Virus record (IMG/VR): IMGVR_UViG_3300012344_000011
Span: 1 to 64,000 of that record
DNA: 64,000 nucleotides
Reading direction: 5' to 3' (one strand)
From: a virus
Taxonomy: Duplodnaviria; Caudoviricetes
Shown: positions 6,950 to 52,572 of the stretch, in pieces
Layout: every line of letters starts with the position of its first letter
Position numbering within the stretch: the stretch's first letter is position 1
Notes under the pieces: generated by a model
What the model was told of the DNA's origin: nothing
Seen by the model: only the letters and a program-made list of their open reading frames with translations
Database searches by the model: none
Program-made: the position numbers and the translations under genes

Positions 6950-7035
6950 TGGTCCACGGAGCAAGGATCGAACTTACTTGTCATTTTCATGAAACAGATT
7001 ATGAGTCTGCTGCCACCCCATTTGGCATTCCGTGG
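6950..7035 (-). tRNA. tRNA with CAU anticodon (Met or Ile2), long variable arm, encoded CCA
   Basis: ccacgga/tccgtgg acceptor, gcc/ggc D stem, gcaga-ctCATaa-tctgt, extra arm tcat-gaaa-atga, gtaag-ttcgatc-cttgc, A73-CCA. Confidence 0.8.
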
Positions 7036-28480: not shown

Positions 28481-31400
28481 ATGGCGAGTTCTAAATATGT
28501 TGACTCTTCCGCAATTGTTCAAGTCATAGGCTGCACTATGAAAGATCCAAGTCTATTGGAAGATGACAGATATTTTTATAATGAAGCAGATTTTGCGAAT
28601 AATTTTCACCGAGTTGTCTTTGGCGCAATAAATAATCTTTATACGATGGGTGCAAAAAAAGTTTCTTGCGCTGACATTGAAGCATATTTTGAAAATAGAC
28701 CTGAAAGTAAAGCTGTTTATTCTGCGGGAAAAGGTAGCGCCTGGCTAACAGAAGCAACATCAAATGCAGACTTGAATAATTTTGATTATTATTATAGTCG
28801 AATGAAAAAGATGACACTTCTAAGAGAGTATGAGTCTTGTGGATTAGATATGTCATTTTTATATAATCCTGATGAACTTTATGATTCTAAAAAGAAGAAA
28901 AGACAAGAAGATTATCTTGATAGTTTGTCATTGAATGAAATTGCAGATCTAATTGATAACAAAATTTTTGATATTAGAGCAAAATGCATAGACAATGCAA
29001 CCGATGAAGCAGCTAATGCTGGTGAAGGAATTTTTGATCTATTACAAAGATTAGAAGAAAATCCAGATGTTGGTACTGGATTATATGATAAATTGACAAA
29101 TACTGTTACCAGAGGAGCAAGATTAGGAAAATTCTATATTAGAAGCGCGCCTACAGGAGTCGGTATTTTGGGTATTTTTGTATAAATATTATATTATTAT
29201 TTTTATAGCTTCTTAGAGAACAAAATAAAGGAGGTTATAAAATAAATGGGAAAATCAAAAGAATATAAAGAAAAATATGAGATAGCAAAAAAAGAGTATC
29301 TAAAAGGTTGTGAAAGTCTTACTTCAATTTGCAAAAAATTTAAAATTGATAGAGGAACTTTTTCTTCAAACTTAAAATCTGATGGAATAGAAATTGTAAA
29401 TAAACAAAATATTGCCAAATTTAATGAAGAAATTTTTGAGGTTATAGACACTGAAGAAAAAGCTTATTGATTAGGATTTTTATATGCAGATGGATATGTT
29501 GAGTCTGGCAATCGGAATGCTATTGAGCTATCACTTAAATCTTCCGACATAGAACATTTAAGAAAATTTTCATCTTTTTTGGGTTTTGATGATAACAAAC
29601 ATATTTTTCAAGATGAAGTAAGATGTAGATTTTATTTTAGAAATAAAAAAGTTAAAAACAGACTAATTAGTCTTGGATGCGTTCCACAAAAAAGTTTAAT
29701 TTTAAAATTCCCGTCGGAAGAACAGGTTCCAAGAGAATTGATTAGACACTTTATTAGAGGATACGTAGATGGAGATGGAAGTCTAATGCTAGGAAAAAAT
29801 CATCTTGGAGAATATGTAAAACCAAGATTCAATATTCTTGGAACAGAAAATTTTTTAGAGGGAATTTTAGATGTAACTGGATGAAGAAAGCTTAAAATAC
29901 AGCATCCATCAAATGCATATTGCATAGAATGAAGTGGATTTTATGTTAAAGATTATCTTGATTTTCTTTATAAAGATTCAACTATTTACTTAGATAGAAA
30001 ATATAATAAATATTTAAAAATAACGAATATATTTGCCGACTATAAATCGCGGAACTAAGCGGGAAAACTAAGTCTATTTTTATAGATATGTCAATCCGAA
30101 CCGAAGGCTTGCAGTAATATACAAGTCAGGGGCAGAGCATAGGTGATGAAACTATTTTATAGAACATAATTCACCCAAGAGGCCGCGACTCCTATTGCTT
30201 TATAGGAAGAAAAGATATGCCGAGCTTATAAGAAATTATAAGAAATAAAAGATAAAAAACTTTTATGATAACAAAACTGAAAAGTAGAACAATGATTGCA
30301 GATGCAGCTACAATTGCATATAATAAAATATATGTGAATGGACAATGGCAAGATAATGGTATTTCACAACCAGTTCTTCTTATTAGTACAGAAATGGAAT
30401 TAGAAGAAGTACAAACAATGTTGTTAGCTTTCGTAGCAAATGTTGATGAAGATCATATAAAGAAGAATAGGTATGATTTTAATGAAAAAGAACGTGTTAT
30501 GGAAGCCGCACAAATTATTTCTAGTCAACCTCTTTATGTAGAAGTAATTCCAGATTTTAGTCTAAAAGATATTGAGAATACTATTAAAAGAAGTATTAGA
30601 ATTCATGGAGTAAAGTATGTGTTCAACAAAAAGGACTGTGGAACACTTTTCCTGCTCATCACAGGGGTATATATAAATAATAACACATATTATATATGCT
30701 AACGGGGAAGCCTAAACTTTATAATAAGCATGGTAATCCCGTGGGAAACTATTTAGCTATATACTAAATAGAACCTGTAACGACTATCTCCGAATCGGGA
30801 GAGTAGGGCTACTATTGATACGTAACTCGAAAAGGTGTCCTTTCTATTTTTAATAGAAAGTAAGATATAGTCTTGCATTATAGAAATATAATGATAACAG
30901 CTTCGATTATATTCATACATCTATGAAAATTCTTGAAGAGATAACAAGACGCTCAGGTGGTATCAAGTTAAGAGAAGATAATATTTTATTCTTGTTGTCT
31001 GTCAAACTAAAAGATATATGCACTCAATTTAATATATTTATTCTCACTTCAACACAATTAAATGGTAAGAAAAAGTAATTGCCAATAACTCCTTATCCTG
31101 TGTCTCGCAGGGGTAAATTATTTGGATAAAACTGAATAGTTTGCTAACGGGGAATTCTAAGTTATATTGAATATAGAATGGAAATATAATATGAAAATCC
31201 CGTGCGATGCAATTCATTGGAGGCTGGCTATGATAGGAATTTATAAAATTGAAAACTTGGTTAATCATAAAGTGTATATTGGGCAAAGTGTCGATATAAA
31301 AAAAAGATATAAAGAACATCTCAGAAGGGGGCAACCAAAGAAATATTCTTTAAAATCTGAGAGAGATAGAAAATGCCCTATACATTTAGCTATGCAAAAA

Positions 31401-36923: not shown

Positions 36924-39900
36924 ATGAAGAGTTACTCCCGCTTCGAGTGCCATCTGCACACAATGTATAGTAATCTTCGTTTGCTCGACAGTATTAATCG
37001 TCCAAAAGAACTAGTAGAAAGGGCAATTGAACTTGGTCTTGCGGGAATCGCTATTACAGATCATGAATCATTATCATCGCATGTTGAGATAGATCGATTG
37101 ATGAGTCAATACGCAGAGTCTAATCCAGATTTTAAGATTGCAAGAGGTAATGAAATTTATCTGACTGATACAAGAGAAGTCGGTCAAAAATATTGGCACT
37201 TTATTCTAATTGCAAAAGATGCAATTGGTCATAAGATGTTAAGAGAATTATCATCAAATTCTTGGATTAATAGTTATTATGACAGAGGTATGGAAAGAGT
37301 TCCAACTTTAAAAACTGAACTTGCGGCAATTGTAGAAAAATATGGACAAGGACATCTTATTGGATCTACTGCTTGTTTAGGGTCGGAGATTGACAATTAT
37401 ATTTTAGAGCTAAACAATGCACGAATTGTTGGTGATAAACGGACAGAGCAAATTGCTTATCAAAATATTCTAGATTTTGTTCAATTTGGAAAAAGAATTT
37501 TCAAAGATGATTTTTATCTTGAGGTTCAACCAGCTAGATCAAAAGATCAATTAATTGTAAACAATATGATGGGTGGAATTGGAAAAGCAACTAATACTAA
37601 ACTTATTGTTACAACAGATGCGCATTATTTAAAAAAAGAAGATCGATGGGTTCATAAAGCTTTCCTAAATTCTAAATCTGGTGATAGAGAAGTTGATAGT
37701 TTTTATGAATATACATATTTACAATCAACAGAAGAGGTTATTGAGAATCTAAAAGGAACGAATCTTGATTATTATGAACTTGAAGCAAACACTATAGAAA
37801 TTTATAATAAAATTGAAAATTATAGTTTGTTAAGAAATCAGCACGTCCCGCAAATTCCTGTAAAAGAATATCCAAAAGTTGATTATAATAGTAAGTATGA
37901 AACTTTGAACTATTTGTATAATAGTGATAATGTCCAAGAAAGATATTGGGTTAATCAATGTATAGATAGAATGAAAGAACTTGATATTTATAATGATGAA
38001 TATCTTGAAAGATTAGAGTATGAAGCAGATATTAAGAAGCATGTCGGCGAAAGACTTGGAAGCTGTATTTTTTCTTATCCTATCTTCCTTCAACACTACA
38101 TTGATTTATTCTGGGAGTGCGGCAGTCCTACTGGGTGTGGTCGTGGTTCGAGCGGAGCTGGTCTTAATCATTATTTGTTGGGTGTTTCGCAAACAAATCC
38201 TGTAGAGTCTAGATCGCCTTTTTGGAGATACATGAATAAAGAACGTGTTGAATTGCCTAAACGATAAATATTGGGCAATTAAAAGCAGGTGAACCATTTC
38301 TCGTGGGTGTCGCAATTATGCGGCTAACGGGGGAAGCTAAAGCCAATTAGGTATGCCAATCCCGTGCTAAGTCTATTCTATATAAATATAAAAATAATTA
38401 TAAAATTAGATGTAAGAAAAGAGTATTCTAATGGAAAAAAGAATCAAAGATTTTTCTGATTATGCAATTACAGACAGTGGCAAAGTTATTAGTTATAAAT
38501 ATAAAACCCCAAAAGTTTTATCTACGTGATGTCAAAAAGCTGGATATGAAAATATTAAGCTGTCAAAAAATAATGAAACATATCATTTTTTAGTGCATAG
38601 ACTTGTTGCAGAAGCTTTTATTCCAAACCCAGAAAATCTTCCAGAGGTAAATCATAAAGATAATAACCCTAAAAATAATTGCATAGAAAATTTAGAGTGG
38701 TGTACTAGAAAATATAACTTAGATTTAAGTTATAAAACAATGTCTCCAACAAGAAATTACGTGGAAGTTTATCTGATAAGAGAAGATACAGAAGAGATAA
38801 TCAAAAGATTCAAAACAATTAAAAGTGCAGCAGAATATGCCAATAAAAATTTTAACTGTAGTGTTAGTGGAATGATAAGAAATTATCGTTCTAATGGATA
38901 TAGAATAGAAAAGTGTAACGACTAAATAAAGAACAGATGTTTTTTGAGAGAAGTAGAGATGAGAACTACTTCGTAGTGCCTGCCGCTATAAGCGATGATA
39001 TAGTCTAATCCCCTAAGAAATATCGGAAAACCGAGGGTGTAAATGGATATCGACCTTGATCTAGCTCCATCTAAGCGAGAGCTAATTTTTGAAAAGATTA
39101 GGGAAGAGCGTGGTGAGCTTGGTTGTATTCAAGTTTGTACTTTTGGAACAGCTTCAACAAAAAGTGCAATTCAAATTGCGTGTAGAGGATATAGAACAGA
39201 AGAATATAAAGATGGAATTGATAATGATACAAGTTTATACATTAGTTCACTTGTTCCATCTGAGCGTGGTTTTTTGTGGTCAATAAATGATGTAGTACAC
39301 GGAAACGAAGAAAAAGGGCGTAAACCAAATAAGACATTTATCAATGCTGTGAACCAATATCCAGGTTTGTTGGAAATCATCATTGGTATTGAAGGATTGG
39401 TTGTTTCTCGTGGTATTCATGCATCTGGTGTTGTTTTTTATGACGAAGATCCATTTGAAACGGCTTGTTTTATGAAAGCTACAAATGGTTCTATCATAAC
39501 GCAGTATTCGTTGCATGATGCAGAAGCTTGTGGTAAATAGTATTGCCACTAAACATCTAATCGTTTATCAGCGATGTGTTGTAGGCATCTCGATATTATA
39601 AACGAGAGTAAGTAAAAAATACCTACAATGCACCAGGGAAGCCTAAACCTTTATAAGGCACGGTAATCCTGGGCTAAAGTAAGTAATTTATATCTTTTCT
39701 AAACATTAAGAATAAAAAGGATAAAATAATGTATGTATATCTAATAACTAACAAGGTCAATAACAAAAAGTATGTAGGAATAACAAATAACTATAAGAAA
39801 AGATGAGCAAATCATAAAAGCAATAATAATCCTAGTATGGCTATAGCCAAAGCAATAAAAAAATATGGAGTAAAAAATTTTACGTTTGAAATTGTTGAAG

Positions 39901-42760
39901 AAAATGTTCCTCTTGATGATATAGATGCCAAAGAGCAATATTATATTGAATATTATAATACACACGTATCAACTAATAAAGGATATAATATTTCTAAAGG
40001 TGGGAGATATAATATTGCAAATAGCACTCATATAGGAGTAAAAAATGGCAGGGCGTTATTATCTAAAGAACAGGTAGAATATATAAAATCACATCGAAAC
40101 ATTCCTGAATATGTATTATATGATGAATTTTCTGAAATTCTTACATACACAGCATTTAGAGATATATATTTAGATAAAACGTATAAAGATATAACTCCAA
40201 CAGTAGATATATGTCCAAATAATTTTGAATTTTCTTGTCAATTTAATAGATCTAAAATTACATATGATGAAGTGGTAGAGCTAAGACAGAAATATAAAAA
40301 TAATATATTTTGAAAAGATGCATATACTGATTACTATAAAACGCTTTATGATGAAATGACTTTTTGAAACATATATGTTGGGAATAGATTCAAATTAGTT
40401 AATCCTGAAGTTTTTACGCCAGAAAGAAAACATTATCAATCAATGTTATCACATTCTGGAGAGAACAATGGAAGAGCCAAACTAAAAAAAGAAGATGTTC
40501 TTAGTATAAGATATTTATTTAAATCTAATCAAAAAACTAGAGCAGAACTTCAAGAAAAATATTCTTATGTTTCAAAAACGACTATTAAATAATGTTATAA
40601 ACTATAAAACTTGAAAAAACATATAAATTACTTATAAATGCCAATCGACTATCCCTCGGAAGGGGAGTACAACTACTATTGATACGTAGTTGGAAAAGGT
40701 GTTCTCAATATTGATTGAGTAAGATATAGTCAGGACTTGTGGAAACACAAGAATAACTGGATACAAAGTACGATTTCTTGGTTACAGAACAAATGGATAT
40801 TATGGCACAATGTATTCAACTTCTCCAAGAGAACGGATATATGGAAAAAAATTTGACGTTGCGGCAAGCATATGATAAATATGTTCATCCAGATAAATTA
40901 CCTCTAAATGATAGTAAATTGTGGGATGCAATAGATTCTGCGAATTTATTAGCTCTCTTTCAGTTTAATACCGCTGTAGGAGGCAACATTGTGCGACAAT
41001 TGAAGCCAAGGAACGTAGAAGAATTAACAGCTTGTAATGCATTGACAAGATTAGCAGGAGAACCTGGAAAAGAAAGACCTGCTGATAAGTATTATAGATT
41101 TAAGAATAATTTGTCTTTATGGTATGAAGAAATGAACGAATATGGATTGACGCAACACGAACAAAAAGTTCTTGAAAAATATATGTTGACAGATTATGGT
41201 GTACCATCTTCGCAAGAAATTCTTATGACAATCTTGATGGATAAAGAAACATGCGGTTTTAGTCTTGCAGAAGCAAATACTGCAAGAAAGATTGTTGCAA
41301 AGAAGCAGATGGATAAAGTTCAGGGATTGAAAGAAAAAATTCTTGAAAAAGCAAAAAGAAAAATTTTGGGACAGTATATATGGGATAATGTTATTATGCC
41401 GCAAGCATCTTATTCGTTCTCCAGGATTCACGGATATAGCTATTCGCTTATTGCATGTCAAGCCGCATATTTAGCAACTTATTTTCCTTCTATCTATTGG
41501 AATACTGCATATCTAAGGGTAATTAGTGGTCTTGATGCAGATGCAAGCTCTAATTATAGTAAGATTGCAAAAGGTGTTGGAGATATAATTGAACACGGTG
41601 TAAATGTTTCATTGATTGATATTAATGAGTCTGATTATATGTTTAAGCCTGATGAAAAGAATCACGCCATTCGTTATGGACTAAAAGCTTTGAATGGTGT
41701 TGGTGGAGAGATCATCGAAGAGATTGTTAATAATAGACCATATGAAGATATATATGATTTTATGGAGAAAGTCAAATGCAATAAAACAGTAATGATAGCA
41801 TTGATAAAATCTGGCGCATTTGATAGTTTTGATACTCGTGAAAACATTATGAAAGAATACATTGGAATTACATCTGAACCAAAAAGACGTATTACAATGC
41901 AAAATTTTAATGGTTTATTGGAAAAAGGACTTTTACCGCAAGAGTTAGATTTTCAAAAGAGACTTTTTGTTTTCAATAAAGCACTAAAAAAGAATTGTAA
42001 ATTAGATGGTTATTTGATCTTTGAAAATAATTATTATAATTTTTACGAAGAGTTCTTTGATATTGATTTATTAGAACCTAAAGGAAATGTATTAGTAATG
42101 TCTGAGGGTCAATGGAAGAAACTATATGATAAAAATATGCTTCCCGCAAAAGAATATATTACTAAACACAAAGAAGAACTTTTAAAACAACTCAATGATA
42201 AATTGTTCCAAGAGGAATGGAATAAATACGCGGCTGGATCATTAAGTTCTTGGGAAATGACAAGTCTTGGTTTTTATTATCACGAGCACGAACTAAAGAA
42301 TCTTGATAATGAATACTACAATATTTACAATTTTAATGACTTGCCAGAAGAGCCTATTATAGATTATATTTTTAGTAGAGGCGGTCACGATATTCCAATT
42401 TATAAAACTTGTCGATTAGCAGGTACAGTAATTGCGAAAGATGATCTGAAGAGTAGTATAAGTATTTTGACTGTAAATAGCGGTGTTGTAAATGTAAAGT
42501 TTACAAGAGACTATTATGCAAAATATAATGCTCAATTATCTGAAATTGGTGTTGATGGAAAGAAACATGTCCAAGAAAAATCTTGGTTCAAACGTGGAAC
42601 TTTAGTTATTGTAAACGGTTTCCGCAGAGGAAATATGTTTGTAACGAAGTCTTACAAAAAATCAAAGTCACATCAGTTATATAAGATAACAGAAGTTTTT
42701 GATTCAGGTTTAGTCAATATGACAAATGCAAGATATGGAGAAGAAGAAGTCTTACTATAG
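36924..42760 (+). CDS. dnaE: DNA polymerase III alpha subunit, 1274 aa; join(36924..38258,39046..39534,40760..42760)
   Basis: PHP domain (HLHT, AITDHE, DAHY), GRGS, ELP|DIDLD, HASGV, G|DTKYDFL, YSFSRIH. Confidence 0.95.
38259..39045 (+). mobile_element. Group I intron dnaE-I1 with NUMOD4-HNH HEG (38431-38925, TGA at 38527)
   Basis: IGS gggcaatt pairs with exon aattgcct; HRLVAEAFIPN..VNHKD...NN...NLEWCT. Confidence 0.9.
39535..40759 (+). mobile_element. Group I intron dnaE-I2 with GIY-YIG HEG (39729-40592, TGAs at 39804, 40311, 40365)
   Basis: IGS gccac pairs gtggt; YVYLITNKVNNKKYVG...KR(TGA)ANH; P7 gactat/atagtc. Confidence 0.9.
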
Positions 42761-51219: not shown

Positions 51220-51417
51220 CAATAAAATATAGGAAGGAGGAATTGATGGAGTGCTTTAGTTTATCTGCTCTAAAACAGATTGAGCAAATTCTCTTTTCAT
51301 ATGAATCCTCTTATGATCCAAAGATTCCTCCTTTTTGTATTAAGTATGGAAAAGATTATTACTTTTATGAAATAAAAGAAATATTTGGTAAGTATAGAGT
51401 TATTACTAGATAAAAAT

Positions 51418-51514
51418 GTACCGCTCGCCTATTGGTATGGCCCTGGTCTTCAAAACCAAGAGTTGGTGGGGTCCAAACTCACCAAGCAGAGTTCGATTCT
51501 TTGGCGGTACGCCA
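51418..51514 (+). tRNA. UCA-anticodon (opal-decoding) tRNA, 97 nt, long variable arm
   Basis: gtaccgc/gcggtac acceptor, G73-CCA, tggt-ctTCAaa-acca, extra arm ttggtggg/ctcaccaa, cagag-ttcgatt-ctttg. Confidence 0.9.
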
Positions 51515-51570
51515 AGCTAATATTTGGATAATAACGTAGGTTTGATGCTTTTTTTAGAAAGAATAGAAGA

Positions 51571-52524
51571 ATGAACATAAAAGATAGATTATTACTAACT
51601 TCGATTTTTGAAGATAATGAATGGTTAGATAAATATTGTGAATTAGTTGATAAGAAAGAAAAAAAGAGAAAAAATTTAGATGAAAGAATACAAATACACC
51701 ATATTCTTCCACGATATTATTATAAACAACTTGGTATTCCTATAGACAATTCTTTAGAAAATACCGTTGAGTTATCATTCAATCAACATATATTGGCGCA
51801 TTATTTTTTATATAATTGTTCTTTAGGAGGTATGAAGCAAGCAAATTTAGGTGCTTTTGCTCTTCTAACAGGTGGCAAGCGAATCAAAAATTTTGATGCA
51901 ATAGACCTGAAAGAACAAAAAGAAACTTATCAAAAATGGGTTGATAGTCTATCTAAAAGTGTAATTTGCTTAGAGACTAAAGAATTTTATTCAAGTGCAA
52001 AAGAAGCTTGTAGAAGAACAGGCATTGATTATTCTTCTATTTCAAAATGTTGTAAAGGAAGAAAACTTACCGCTGGTGGTTATCATTGGAAATTTTTTGA
52101 AGACTATAATAATAATATCGAAATAGAATATATAGGTGGATATAAAAAACGTAAAAAAACAAAAAGACAAGAACCAGCACTACCAATCAAAGTAATAAAT
52201 TTAGACACTAATAGAGTATATGATAATGTTCGCCAAGCTGGGAGAGAAACTAACACTAATGAGTCTTGCATAAGAGATGTTCTAAAGGGGAAATGTTGTA
52301 CTGCTGGTGGATACAGATGGCAAAGATATGAAGATTATCTTGCAGGAAAAACTGTTGATACATCACGTAAAAAAACCAAGCCAGTAAAAAATGTAGAAAC
52401 GAATGCCGCTTATCCTTCTATTGCAGAAGCGTCTAGACAAACGAAAATTGACAAAAGTCAAATAGCAAGATGCTGTAGAGGAGAAAGCAAAACAGCTGGT
52501 GATTATCATTGGGAATATGCTTAG
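51571..52524 (+). CDS. Free-standing HNH homing endonuclease with three NUMOD1-like repeats
   Basis: HHILP...N.VEL...H..AH; repeats S..EA.R.TGI..S.IS.CC.G...TAGGY.W. Confidence 0.85.
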   Translation: MNIKDRLLLTSIFEDNEWLDKYCELVDKKEKKRKNLDERIQIHHILPRYYYKQLGIPIDNSLENTVELSFNQHILAHYFLYNCSLGGMKQANLGAFALLTGGKRIKNFDAIDLKEQKETYQKWVDSLSKSVICLETKEFYSSAKEACRRTGIDYSSISKCCKGRKLTAGGYHWKFFEDYNNNIEIEYIGGYKKRKKTKRQEPALPIKVINLDTNRVYDNVRQAGRETNTNESCIRDVLKGKCCTAGGYRWQRYEDYLAGKTVDTSRKKTKPVKNVETNAAYPSIAEASRQTKIDKSQIARCCRGESKTAGDYHWEYA

Positions 52525-52528
52525 ACAT

Positions 52529-52572
52529 AAAAAAATGGGGGAGTACACTTCAAAAGTGTACTCCCTTTTTTT
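52529..52572. terminator. Bidirectional intrinsic terminator between convergent blocks
   Basis: gggagtacactt-ca-aaagtgtactccc hairpin flanked by A and T runs. Confidence 0.85.

Follow-up and report, generated by a model that had tools for sequence, protein, structure and literature searches.

How phages that reassign a stop codon charge their suppressor tRNAs is, according to Borges et al. (10.1101/2021.08.26.457843), an open question, and almost none of these phages encodes a synthetase. The locus described here poses that question for a single RNA. The window analyzed in this work is a 64,000-nt stretch of DNA at the start of a virus record that totals 139,824 nt and is 96% complete, and within it ARAGORN places a tRNA with a UCA anticodon at positions 51418–51514 (+ strand), which the program labels SeC. 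An initial annotation of the window saw in this RNA an opal-decoding tRNA with a Ser/Sec-like body in a genome whose TGA codons mean Trp, and it entertained a phage synthetase as the charging enzyme. Which amino acid this tRNA delivers, which enzyme charges it and what its long extra arm contributes are the questions that we address below.

The meaning of UGA in the phage genome

The phage carries genes for gyrase, ligase, Pol III alpha, RecJ, dUTPase and RuvC, and its coding density rises from 0.80 to 0.85 when TGA is read through. With respect to the residue inserted, 32 TGA sites could be aligned with homologues in the fetched loci, and Trp is the best fit, ahead of Tyr by 13 ln units and of Ser or Cys by 30. 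Moreover, TGA and TGG interchange at three Trp columns of RuvC between close relatives. On the evidence of these alignments UGA is a Trp codon in this genome, as the initial annotation had proposed. The base following an in-frame TGA is a purine in 55/65 cases versus 204/324 after TGG (genome G000, all in-frame TGA codons of an ORF set that was not curated), an excess that would be expected if contexts favoring suppression over RF2 are selected.

The same genome, at 96% completeness, contains no TrpRS, release factor, SelB or class II SerRS-type synthetase core, and ARAGORN finds no separate tRNA-Trp(CCA) in it. The phage synthetase of the initial annotation is thus left without a candidate gene, and with UGA read as Trp and no synthetase encoded, the host must charge the tRNA. 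SelB-dependent insertion of selenocysteine, which the initial annotation had set against its own assignment, finds no counterpart here either: the genome has no SelB domain, and hairpins 3′ of TGA are no stronger than those 3′ of TGG (p = 0.39).

Fold of the UCA tRNA

The RNA encoded at 51418–51514 is 97 nt long, and ARAGORN, Rfam and the predicted fold together describe a putative opal-suppressor tRNA-Trp(UCA) with two anticodon-like arms and a 7/5 acceptor/T branch. It scores 36.2 bits against Rfam RF00005, above the gathering threshold, and 82 bits against a family model (R1) that was built including it; its folding z-score (−1.7) is unremarkable taken alone, and its sequence is identical across 10 near-identical assemblies. 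The acceptor is a 7-bp stem opening with G1–C72, and it is followed by G73 (position 51511) and an encoded CCA end. The D arm (51427–51441) has 3 bp plus U·U, with G18G19 in its loop. The first, decoding anticodon arm (51443–51459) has 4 bp plus C27·A43, and its UCA anticodon (51450–51452) sits in a canonical 7-nt loop of sequence C-U-UCA-A-A. The variable-arm position is occupied by a second anticodon-like arm (51463–51485), recognized from the fold and the family alignment, with an 8-bp stem and a 7-nt loop (51471–51477, G-U-CCA-A-A), and a 5-bp T arm (51487–51503) follows; all of these elements lie on the + strand. The fold confirms the structural features listed in the initial annotation, namely the UCA anticodon, G73, the 8-bp extra arm, the 4-bp anticodon stem with C27·A43, the 7/5 branch and the short D stem. 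The 8/4 fold that it gave as an alternative fares worse. Specifically, this fold is less stable by 2.1 kcal/mol, its pair probability is 0.30 as against 0.58 for 7/5, and it is not kept in the family described below, in which 49–65 is a Watson–Crick pair in 47/48 members and 8–65 pairing is possible in only 8/48.

The loop of the extra arm has the form of a U-turn-type anticodon loop reading CCA, the Trp type, and this triplet (51473–51475) lies 14 nt 5′ of the T stem. The anticodon stem and the T stem are separated by 27 nt, in place of the canonical 4–5-nt variable loop and single CCA arm. The acceptor of the window allele retains G73 but has G1–C72, U2–A71 and A3–U70 where the Trp set would have A1–U72/G2–C71/G3–C70.

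Conservation and geometry of the second arm

Exact-sequence scans and BLAST searches with the window tRNA gave no matches, and its family surfaced only with a relaxed pattern. For viral sequences this pattern specified a UCA arm and then a distant T loop, with the interval between them left unspecified and CCA not asked for. The scan yielded two kinds of molecule: true tRNA-Sec, and tRNAs with a tRNA-Trp acceptor and a variable-region hairpin whose loop reads N-U-C-C-A-A-A. With the matches sorted blind to the arm, U-CCA was found in the arm loop of 44 of the 45 non-Sec long-arm UCA tRNAs and in 0/16 tRNA-Sec (Fisher p = 8e-14, the members being related and the samples not independent), and in several members the second arm is an exact tRNA-Trp anticodon stem-loop. 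A looser scan added further members with other UCA stems. When bacterial genomes were scanned with a pattern that did ask for TCCA, almost only true tRNA-Sec were returned, with at least three family members among the matches listed, which gives a rough indication that the family occurs mainly in viruses. The sole long-arm non-Sec UCA tRNA without the CCA loop (L151, 2905–3002) has a Trp-type acceptor and a poorly paired 28-nt variable region.

In the alignment of 48 sequences, three of which came from a pattern requiring TCCA, the second-arm pairs are formed at 30–40 in 48/48, at 29–41 in 46/48, at 28–42 in 48/48 and at 27–43 in 43/48, with many compensatory types and two-sided changes at 5/5 pairs; slid controls gave 6–71%. 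The members are 51–77% identical to the window tRNA and 93–100 nt long, compared with ~75 nt in tRNA-Trp(CCA), and their acceptors carry G73 in 48/48, A1–U72 in 40/48, G2–C71 in 31 and G3–C70 in 37. Within the first arm, whose positions 29–41 were fixed by the initial pattern, 27–43 is paired in 41/48. The 4-bp anticodon stem had been put forward as a device for promoting UGA readthrough, an idea that loses its force here: a cognate UCA anticodon needs no near-cognate trick, and most of the family pairs 27–43. Taken together, and as judged from the alignment, the second arm is a conserved Trp-type anticodon hairpin rather than a Ser/Sec-like variable arm. Its 7-nt U-CCA loop, the variable linker before it and the tRNA-Trp acceptor consensus are all unlike class II tRNAs, so the Ser/Sec-like body of the initial annotation has to be given up. 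The other view taken there, of a Trp-type tRNA that decodes opal codons, bears a novel long arm and is neither tRNA-Sec nor canonical tRNA-Trp, is supported by both fold and alignment.

The second arm is also held at a regular distance from the T stem. Its C34 lies 14 nt from that stem in 39/48 members and 13–15 nt in all 48, and in ordinary tRNA-Trp(CCA) the corresponding spacing is 14 nt in 19/27. The UCA arm occupies its normal place after the D stem, with a linker of 0 to 7 nt between the arms. Among Ser/Leu/Tyr long-arm tRNAs from the same loci most arm loops have 4 nt (76 cases), a single one has 7 nt, and the U-CCA loop never occurs. Second loops carry G32 in 25/48 cases, the window tRNA included, whereas a purine at position 32 is present in only 4/790 ordinary anticodon loops. 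Because G32 is almost absent from ordinary anticodon loops, the second loop looks protein-binding rather than decoding, which suggests that it would be read at 34–36 by a protein and not by the ribosome. The reverse order, with the CCA arm first, was not found. A tRNA-Trp(CCA) at L369:4031–4115 has a 14-nt variable region containing a small hairpin with U-U-C-A, a single case that is possibly a reversed or early form.

Amber counterparts and synthetases in carrier contigs

A parallel design is seen in 39 amber tRNAs (L478–L584), in which a hairpin with a U-CUG or U-UUG (Gln) loop comes after a CUA arm and the second triplet is spaced 14 nt from the T stem in 31/39; the scan pattern contained the Gln triplet, so that this set is not an unbiased one. 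Coding density is gained under code 4 at 42/60 dual-UCA loci and under code 15 at 21/32 dual-CUA loci, and a search of terminase families for the code of the carrier genomes was uninformative. Across these sequences the second triplet appears to match the amino acid to which the stop is reassigned (Trp for UGA, Gln for UAG). Ordinary tRNA finders mislabel the dual-arm genes, calling the UCA family SeC and the amber family Pyl, and they miss some altogether; the two-arm architecture would explain both outcomes.

The initial annotation had suggested a survey of homologous tRNAs together with linked aminoacyl-tRNA synthetase genes. In addition to the family with its U-CCA loop, such a survey gave TrpRS in 0/50 dual-arm carrier contigs versus 3/25 contigs with a single-arm UCA tRNA, a weak difference (p = 0.03) in a sample that includes fragments and kin.

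Proposed mechanism and alternatives

We propose that the molecule is a tRNA-Trp derivative whose UCA arm decodes UGA and whose CCA arm confers Trp identity toward the host TrpRS, a reading to which, on comparative sequence evidence, we give a probability of roughly 0.7. It would have arisen when the anticodon arm was duplicated in tandem. Of the two copies, the D-proximal UCA arm would decode UGA on the host ribosome, competing with RF2, and the T-proximal arm, with U33-C34-C35-A36-A37 in a 7-nt loop, would supply the Trp anticodon that host TrpRS needs, and the phage would thereby install UGA = Trp without a synthetase of its own. For bacterial TrpRS, G73 and the anticodon rank among the major identity elements (PMC9976931), and a change of C34 to U should consequently cost charging. 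We infer that the host enzyme charges the tRNA via the second loop.

The least certain step is how one RNA would present two anticodons. A helix swap, in which the triplet stacked at the anticodon position is CCA on TrpRS and UCA on the ribosome, is given slightly less than even odds within the proposed mechanism. We favor it over a fixed side arm because each arm is in canonical register with one neighbor, the CCA arm with the T stem and the UCA arm with the D stem. In the alternative geometry the fold would stay fixed, and the side arm would engage the TrpRS dimer by docking on its anticodon-binding domain. More tentatively, the UCA and amber tRNAs may form a two-headed class, widespread in stop-recoding phages, in which a shape switch shows the cognate anticodon (CCA, CUG/UUG) to the host synthetase and the stop-reading one (UCA, CUA) to the ribosome.

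Several observations weigh against the proposal that the CCA arm supplies Trp identity. Single-arm UCA tRNAs are also found in phages without TrpRS (22/25 contigs, many of them fragmentary), one long-arm member, L151, lacks the loop, and the G1–C72 and U2–A71 pairs of the window tRNA, like the A73 of its closest homologue (L694), fall outside the usual bacterial Trp set. Phage UCA suppressors have moreover inserted Trp in an E. coli extract (10.1101/2025.10.30.685624), and the second loop may therefore boost charging without being needed for it.

The CCA loop could also serve some other reader of the Trp anticodon, with charging left to the UCA arm and the acceptor stem. Such a reader might be a modifying enzyme, or a T-box riboswitch that controls trpS or the trp operon in the host, through which the phage would raise TrpRS or the supply of Trp. 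T-boxes read the anticodon plus N33, and U33-CCA is invariant in the family. The charging of some phage UCA tRNAs with Trp by E. coli extract (10.1101/2025.10.30.685624) fits this scheme as well. Nonetheless, T-box recognition wants the anticodon at the canonical elbow distance and would require the same arm swap, and the parallel Gln loops of the amber suppressors are explained less simply; we consider this explanation unlikely. We think it quite unlikely that the molecule is a bifunctional decoder, either arm of which enters the ribosome so that one tRNA reads UGA and UGG. Each arm does have one canonical neighbor and ARAGORN finds no separate tRNA-Trp(CCA), but the host already provides that tRNA, and G32, which half of the second loops carry, hardly ever occurs in loops that decode. 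Bifunctional decoding is in any case compatible with an identity role for the second loop. Defenses that cleave tRNAs are a common answer to phage infection, and tRNAs encoded by phages can offset them. Along with the fast turnover of alleles at this locus, this would suit a second loop that acts as a decoy, absorbing or blocking host anticodon nucleases and so shielding the decoding arm. A decoy would not require the second triplet to track the amino acid of the recoded stop, however, and cleavage within the arm would still nick the tRNA, which leaves this role decidedly improbable.

The remaining explanations take the second arm either for a synthetase determinant of another kind or for a remnant. 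The long arm and G73 are SerRS determinants (PMC9976931) and the ARAGORN label is SeC, features that would suit UGA being read as Ser, ambiguously, or as Sec via SelB. Weighing against this are the 30 ln units by which Trp outscores Ser or Cys, the TGA/TGG exchange in RuvC, the 7/5 fold with its short D stem, a loop size and linkers unlike those of class II tRNAs, and the lack of SelB and of stronger hairpins after TGA in the phage genome, and we hold such decoding to be very improbable. Tandem duplication is the likely origin of the suppressor, and L151 shows that the loop can be lost, so the second arm might be a neutral relic of that event. We judge this the least probable of the explanations considered, as the loop is invariant and the stem covaries across members that are only 51–77% identical to the window tRNA, and the parallel amber family points to selection.

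If the proposed division of labor between the two arms is correct, it would give a concrete answer to the charging question, one testable by a three-base mutation. This would be a natural tRNA with codon reading and amino-acid identity on different anticodon loops, and one RNA would reassign a codon without any new protein. It would also suggest a general design for suppressor tRNAs, in which the cognate anticodon is kept as a side arm for synthetases that depend on it.

Relation to known systems

The phage resembles the Agate clade in size, code and gene layout, a likeness drawn from published description. The code-4 gut phages Agate and Jade (10.1101/2021.08.26.457843) share with it the UCA anticodon, TGA = Trp, the usual lack of a phage synthetase, and TGA enrichment in structural genes and homing endonucleases; Jade and AP1 have their own TrpRS, whereas the window phage has none. 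No second anticodon arm is described by Borges et al. or in a screen of phage tRNA-UCA (10.1101/2025.10.30.685624). A literature search, largely of openly available papers, likewise turned up no description of a tRNA in nature that carries two anticodon arms. Phage opal suppressors are already known, and the mechanism of the second arm is probably new.

Among bacterial tRNAs, the class I tRNA-Trp(CCA) agrees with the dual-arm family in acceptor consensus, in G73, in the sequence type of the anticodon arm and in the 34-to-49 distance of the CCA arm, and the family differs from it by an additional UCA arm that follows the D arm and precedes the CCA arm. Bacterial tRNA-Sec (RF01852) shares the UCA anticodon, long arm and G73, but it has an 8/5 branch versus 7/5 in the window family, and a 6-bp D stem with a 4-nt loop versus a 3–4-bp stem and long loop (3 bp plus U·U in the window tRNA). 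That identity was rejected: the TGA sites fit Trp, with Cys 30 ln units below, the CCA loop is found in 0/16 tRNA-Sec, and SelB is lacking. Allo-tRNAs (8/4, 9/3) and selC* tRNA-Cys(UCA) (Mukai et al., PMC5389517) are also non-canonical long-arm tRNAs, some of them opal suppressors and some in phages, and the present family is set apart from them by its 7/5 branch, a short D stem of canonical form, G73 in place of U73, and its Trp identity. An allo-tRNA or selC* identity was likewise rejected, given the 49–65 and 8–65 pairing described above. An engineered His-system tRNA works on the same principle, with decoding and synthetase-binding anticodons on separate arms. There, a further anticodon-binding domain had to be fused to the synthetase and the effect was modest, which counts against the proposed mechanism; the phage molecule occurs in nature and would rely on the unmodified host enzyme. 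Finally, a Blastocrithidia tRNA-Trp(CCA) with a 4-bp anticodon stem reportedly reads UGA near-cognately. It has an unpaired 27–43 in common with the window allele; here the anticodon is a cognate UCA, and 41/48 members pair 27–43.

The locus and its alleles

Upstream of the tRNA lie a RuvC-like resolvase (PF02075; 50740–51219, + strand), which has in-frame TGA at codons 15 and 45, and a small ORF (51243–51413, +) of 55–56 aa that has no Pfam match and is kept in relatives, directly 5′ of the tRNA in all those with a dual-arm allele at this locus. Directly 3′ is a free-standing HNH/NUMOD homing endonuclease, identified by domain match (51571–52524, +), and a consensus scan places a bidirectional terminator-like hairpin at 52537–52567, closing the replication block. 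The initial annotation had put the tRNA at the end of this block, just after the TGA-containing RuvC gene; the RuvC gene is indeed upstream, but the homing endonuclease intervenes before the strand switch. The place 3′ of the tRNA is taken by a GIY-YIG gene in one relative (L689) and by no gene in another (L687). A promoter scan was at chance level (21 versus 15 ± 5). No UCA tRNA is present in G001, G002 and G004, the nearest standard-looking relatives as judged by RuvC.

Between the 55-aa ORF and the strand switch the alleles differ among relatives, with unrelated dual-arm alleles substituting for one another at this site (window 51413–51570) in phages up to about 96% identical, and in several of these a homing endonuclease gene sits immediately 3′ of the tRNA. 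Five divergent alleles are found at the locus (that of the window and four others), all with a U-CCA-A-A second loop. The closest homologue of the window tRNA (L694:5678–5773) has A73 for G73 and many compensatory stem changes, with the same second loop and C27·A43. L690 (1014–1106) and L691 carry an AGGGG-type allele unrelated to that of the window, in a strain ~96% identical around the locus, and a further unrelated AGGGG-type dual-arm allele is present at L687:5711–5807. An alternative allele was missed by the pattern scans and found via protein look-up. Among the differences listed between two related strains, none falls inside the tRNA. The downstream homing endonuclease may possibly drive the exchange of tRNA alleles. 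In L689 (5681–5894) a 214-nt group I-like intron follows U34 and splits the UCA anticodon of an orthologous dual-arm tRNA. The intron matches RF00028 at 25.8 bits (E = 1e-4), below the gathering threshold, and ARAGORN misses the gene; its splicing would gate the code switch.

Timing of TGA use

Late genes use TGA more heavily, with TGA:TGG at 40:134 (40/174 late Trp codons) versus 19:179 elsewhere (19/198; p = 0.0006); compared with the replication block alone, the enrichment has p = 0.057. The core replication enzymes are TGA-free, and 7/13 TGA codons of the replication block are in homing endonucleases (window 29246–30058, 38431–38925 and 39729–40592). This late enrichment fits the model of late-gene gating by recoding of Borges et al. 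(10.1101/2021.08.26.457843), an idea already known, and from codon usage a timing switch by the tRNA is plausible. The adjacency of tRNA and RuvC is specific to this lineage.

Unusual long arms are not confined to the UCA tRNA. The window also holds a CAU-anticodon tRNA of 86 nt with an unusual long variable arm (6950–7035, − strand), and long-arm tRNA-Ile(UAU) genes are present in relatives G001 and G002.
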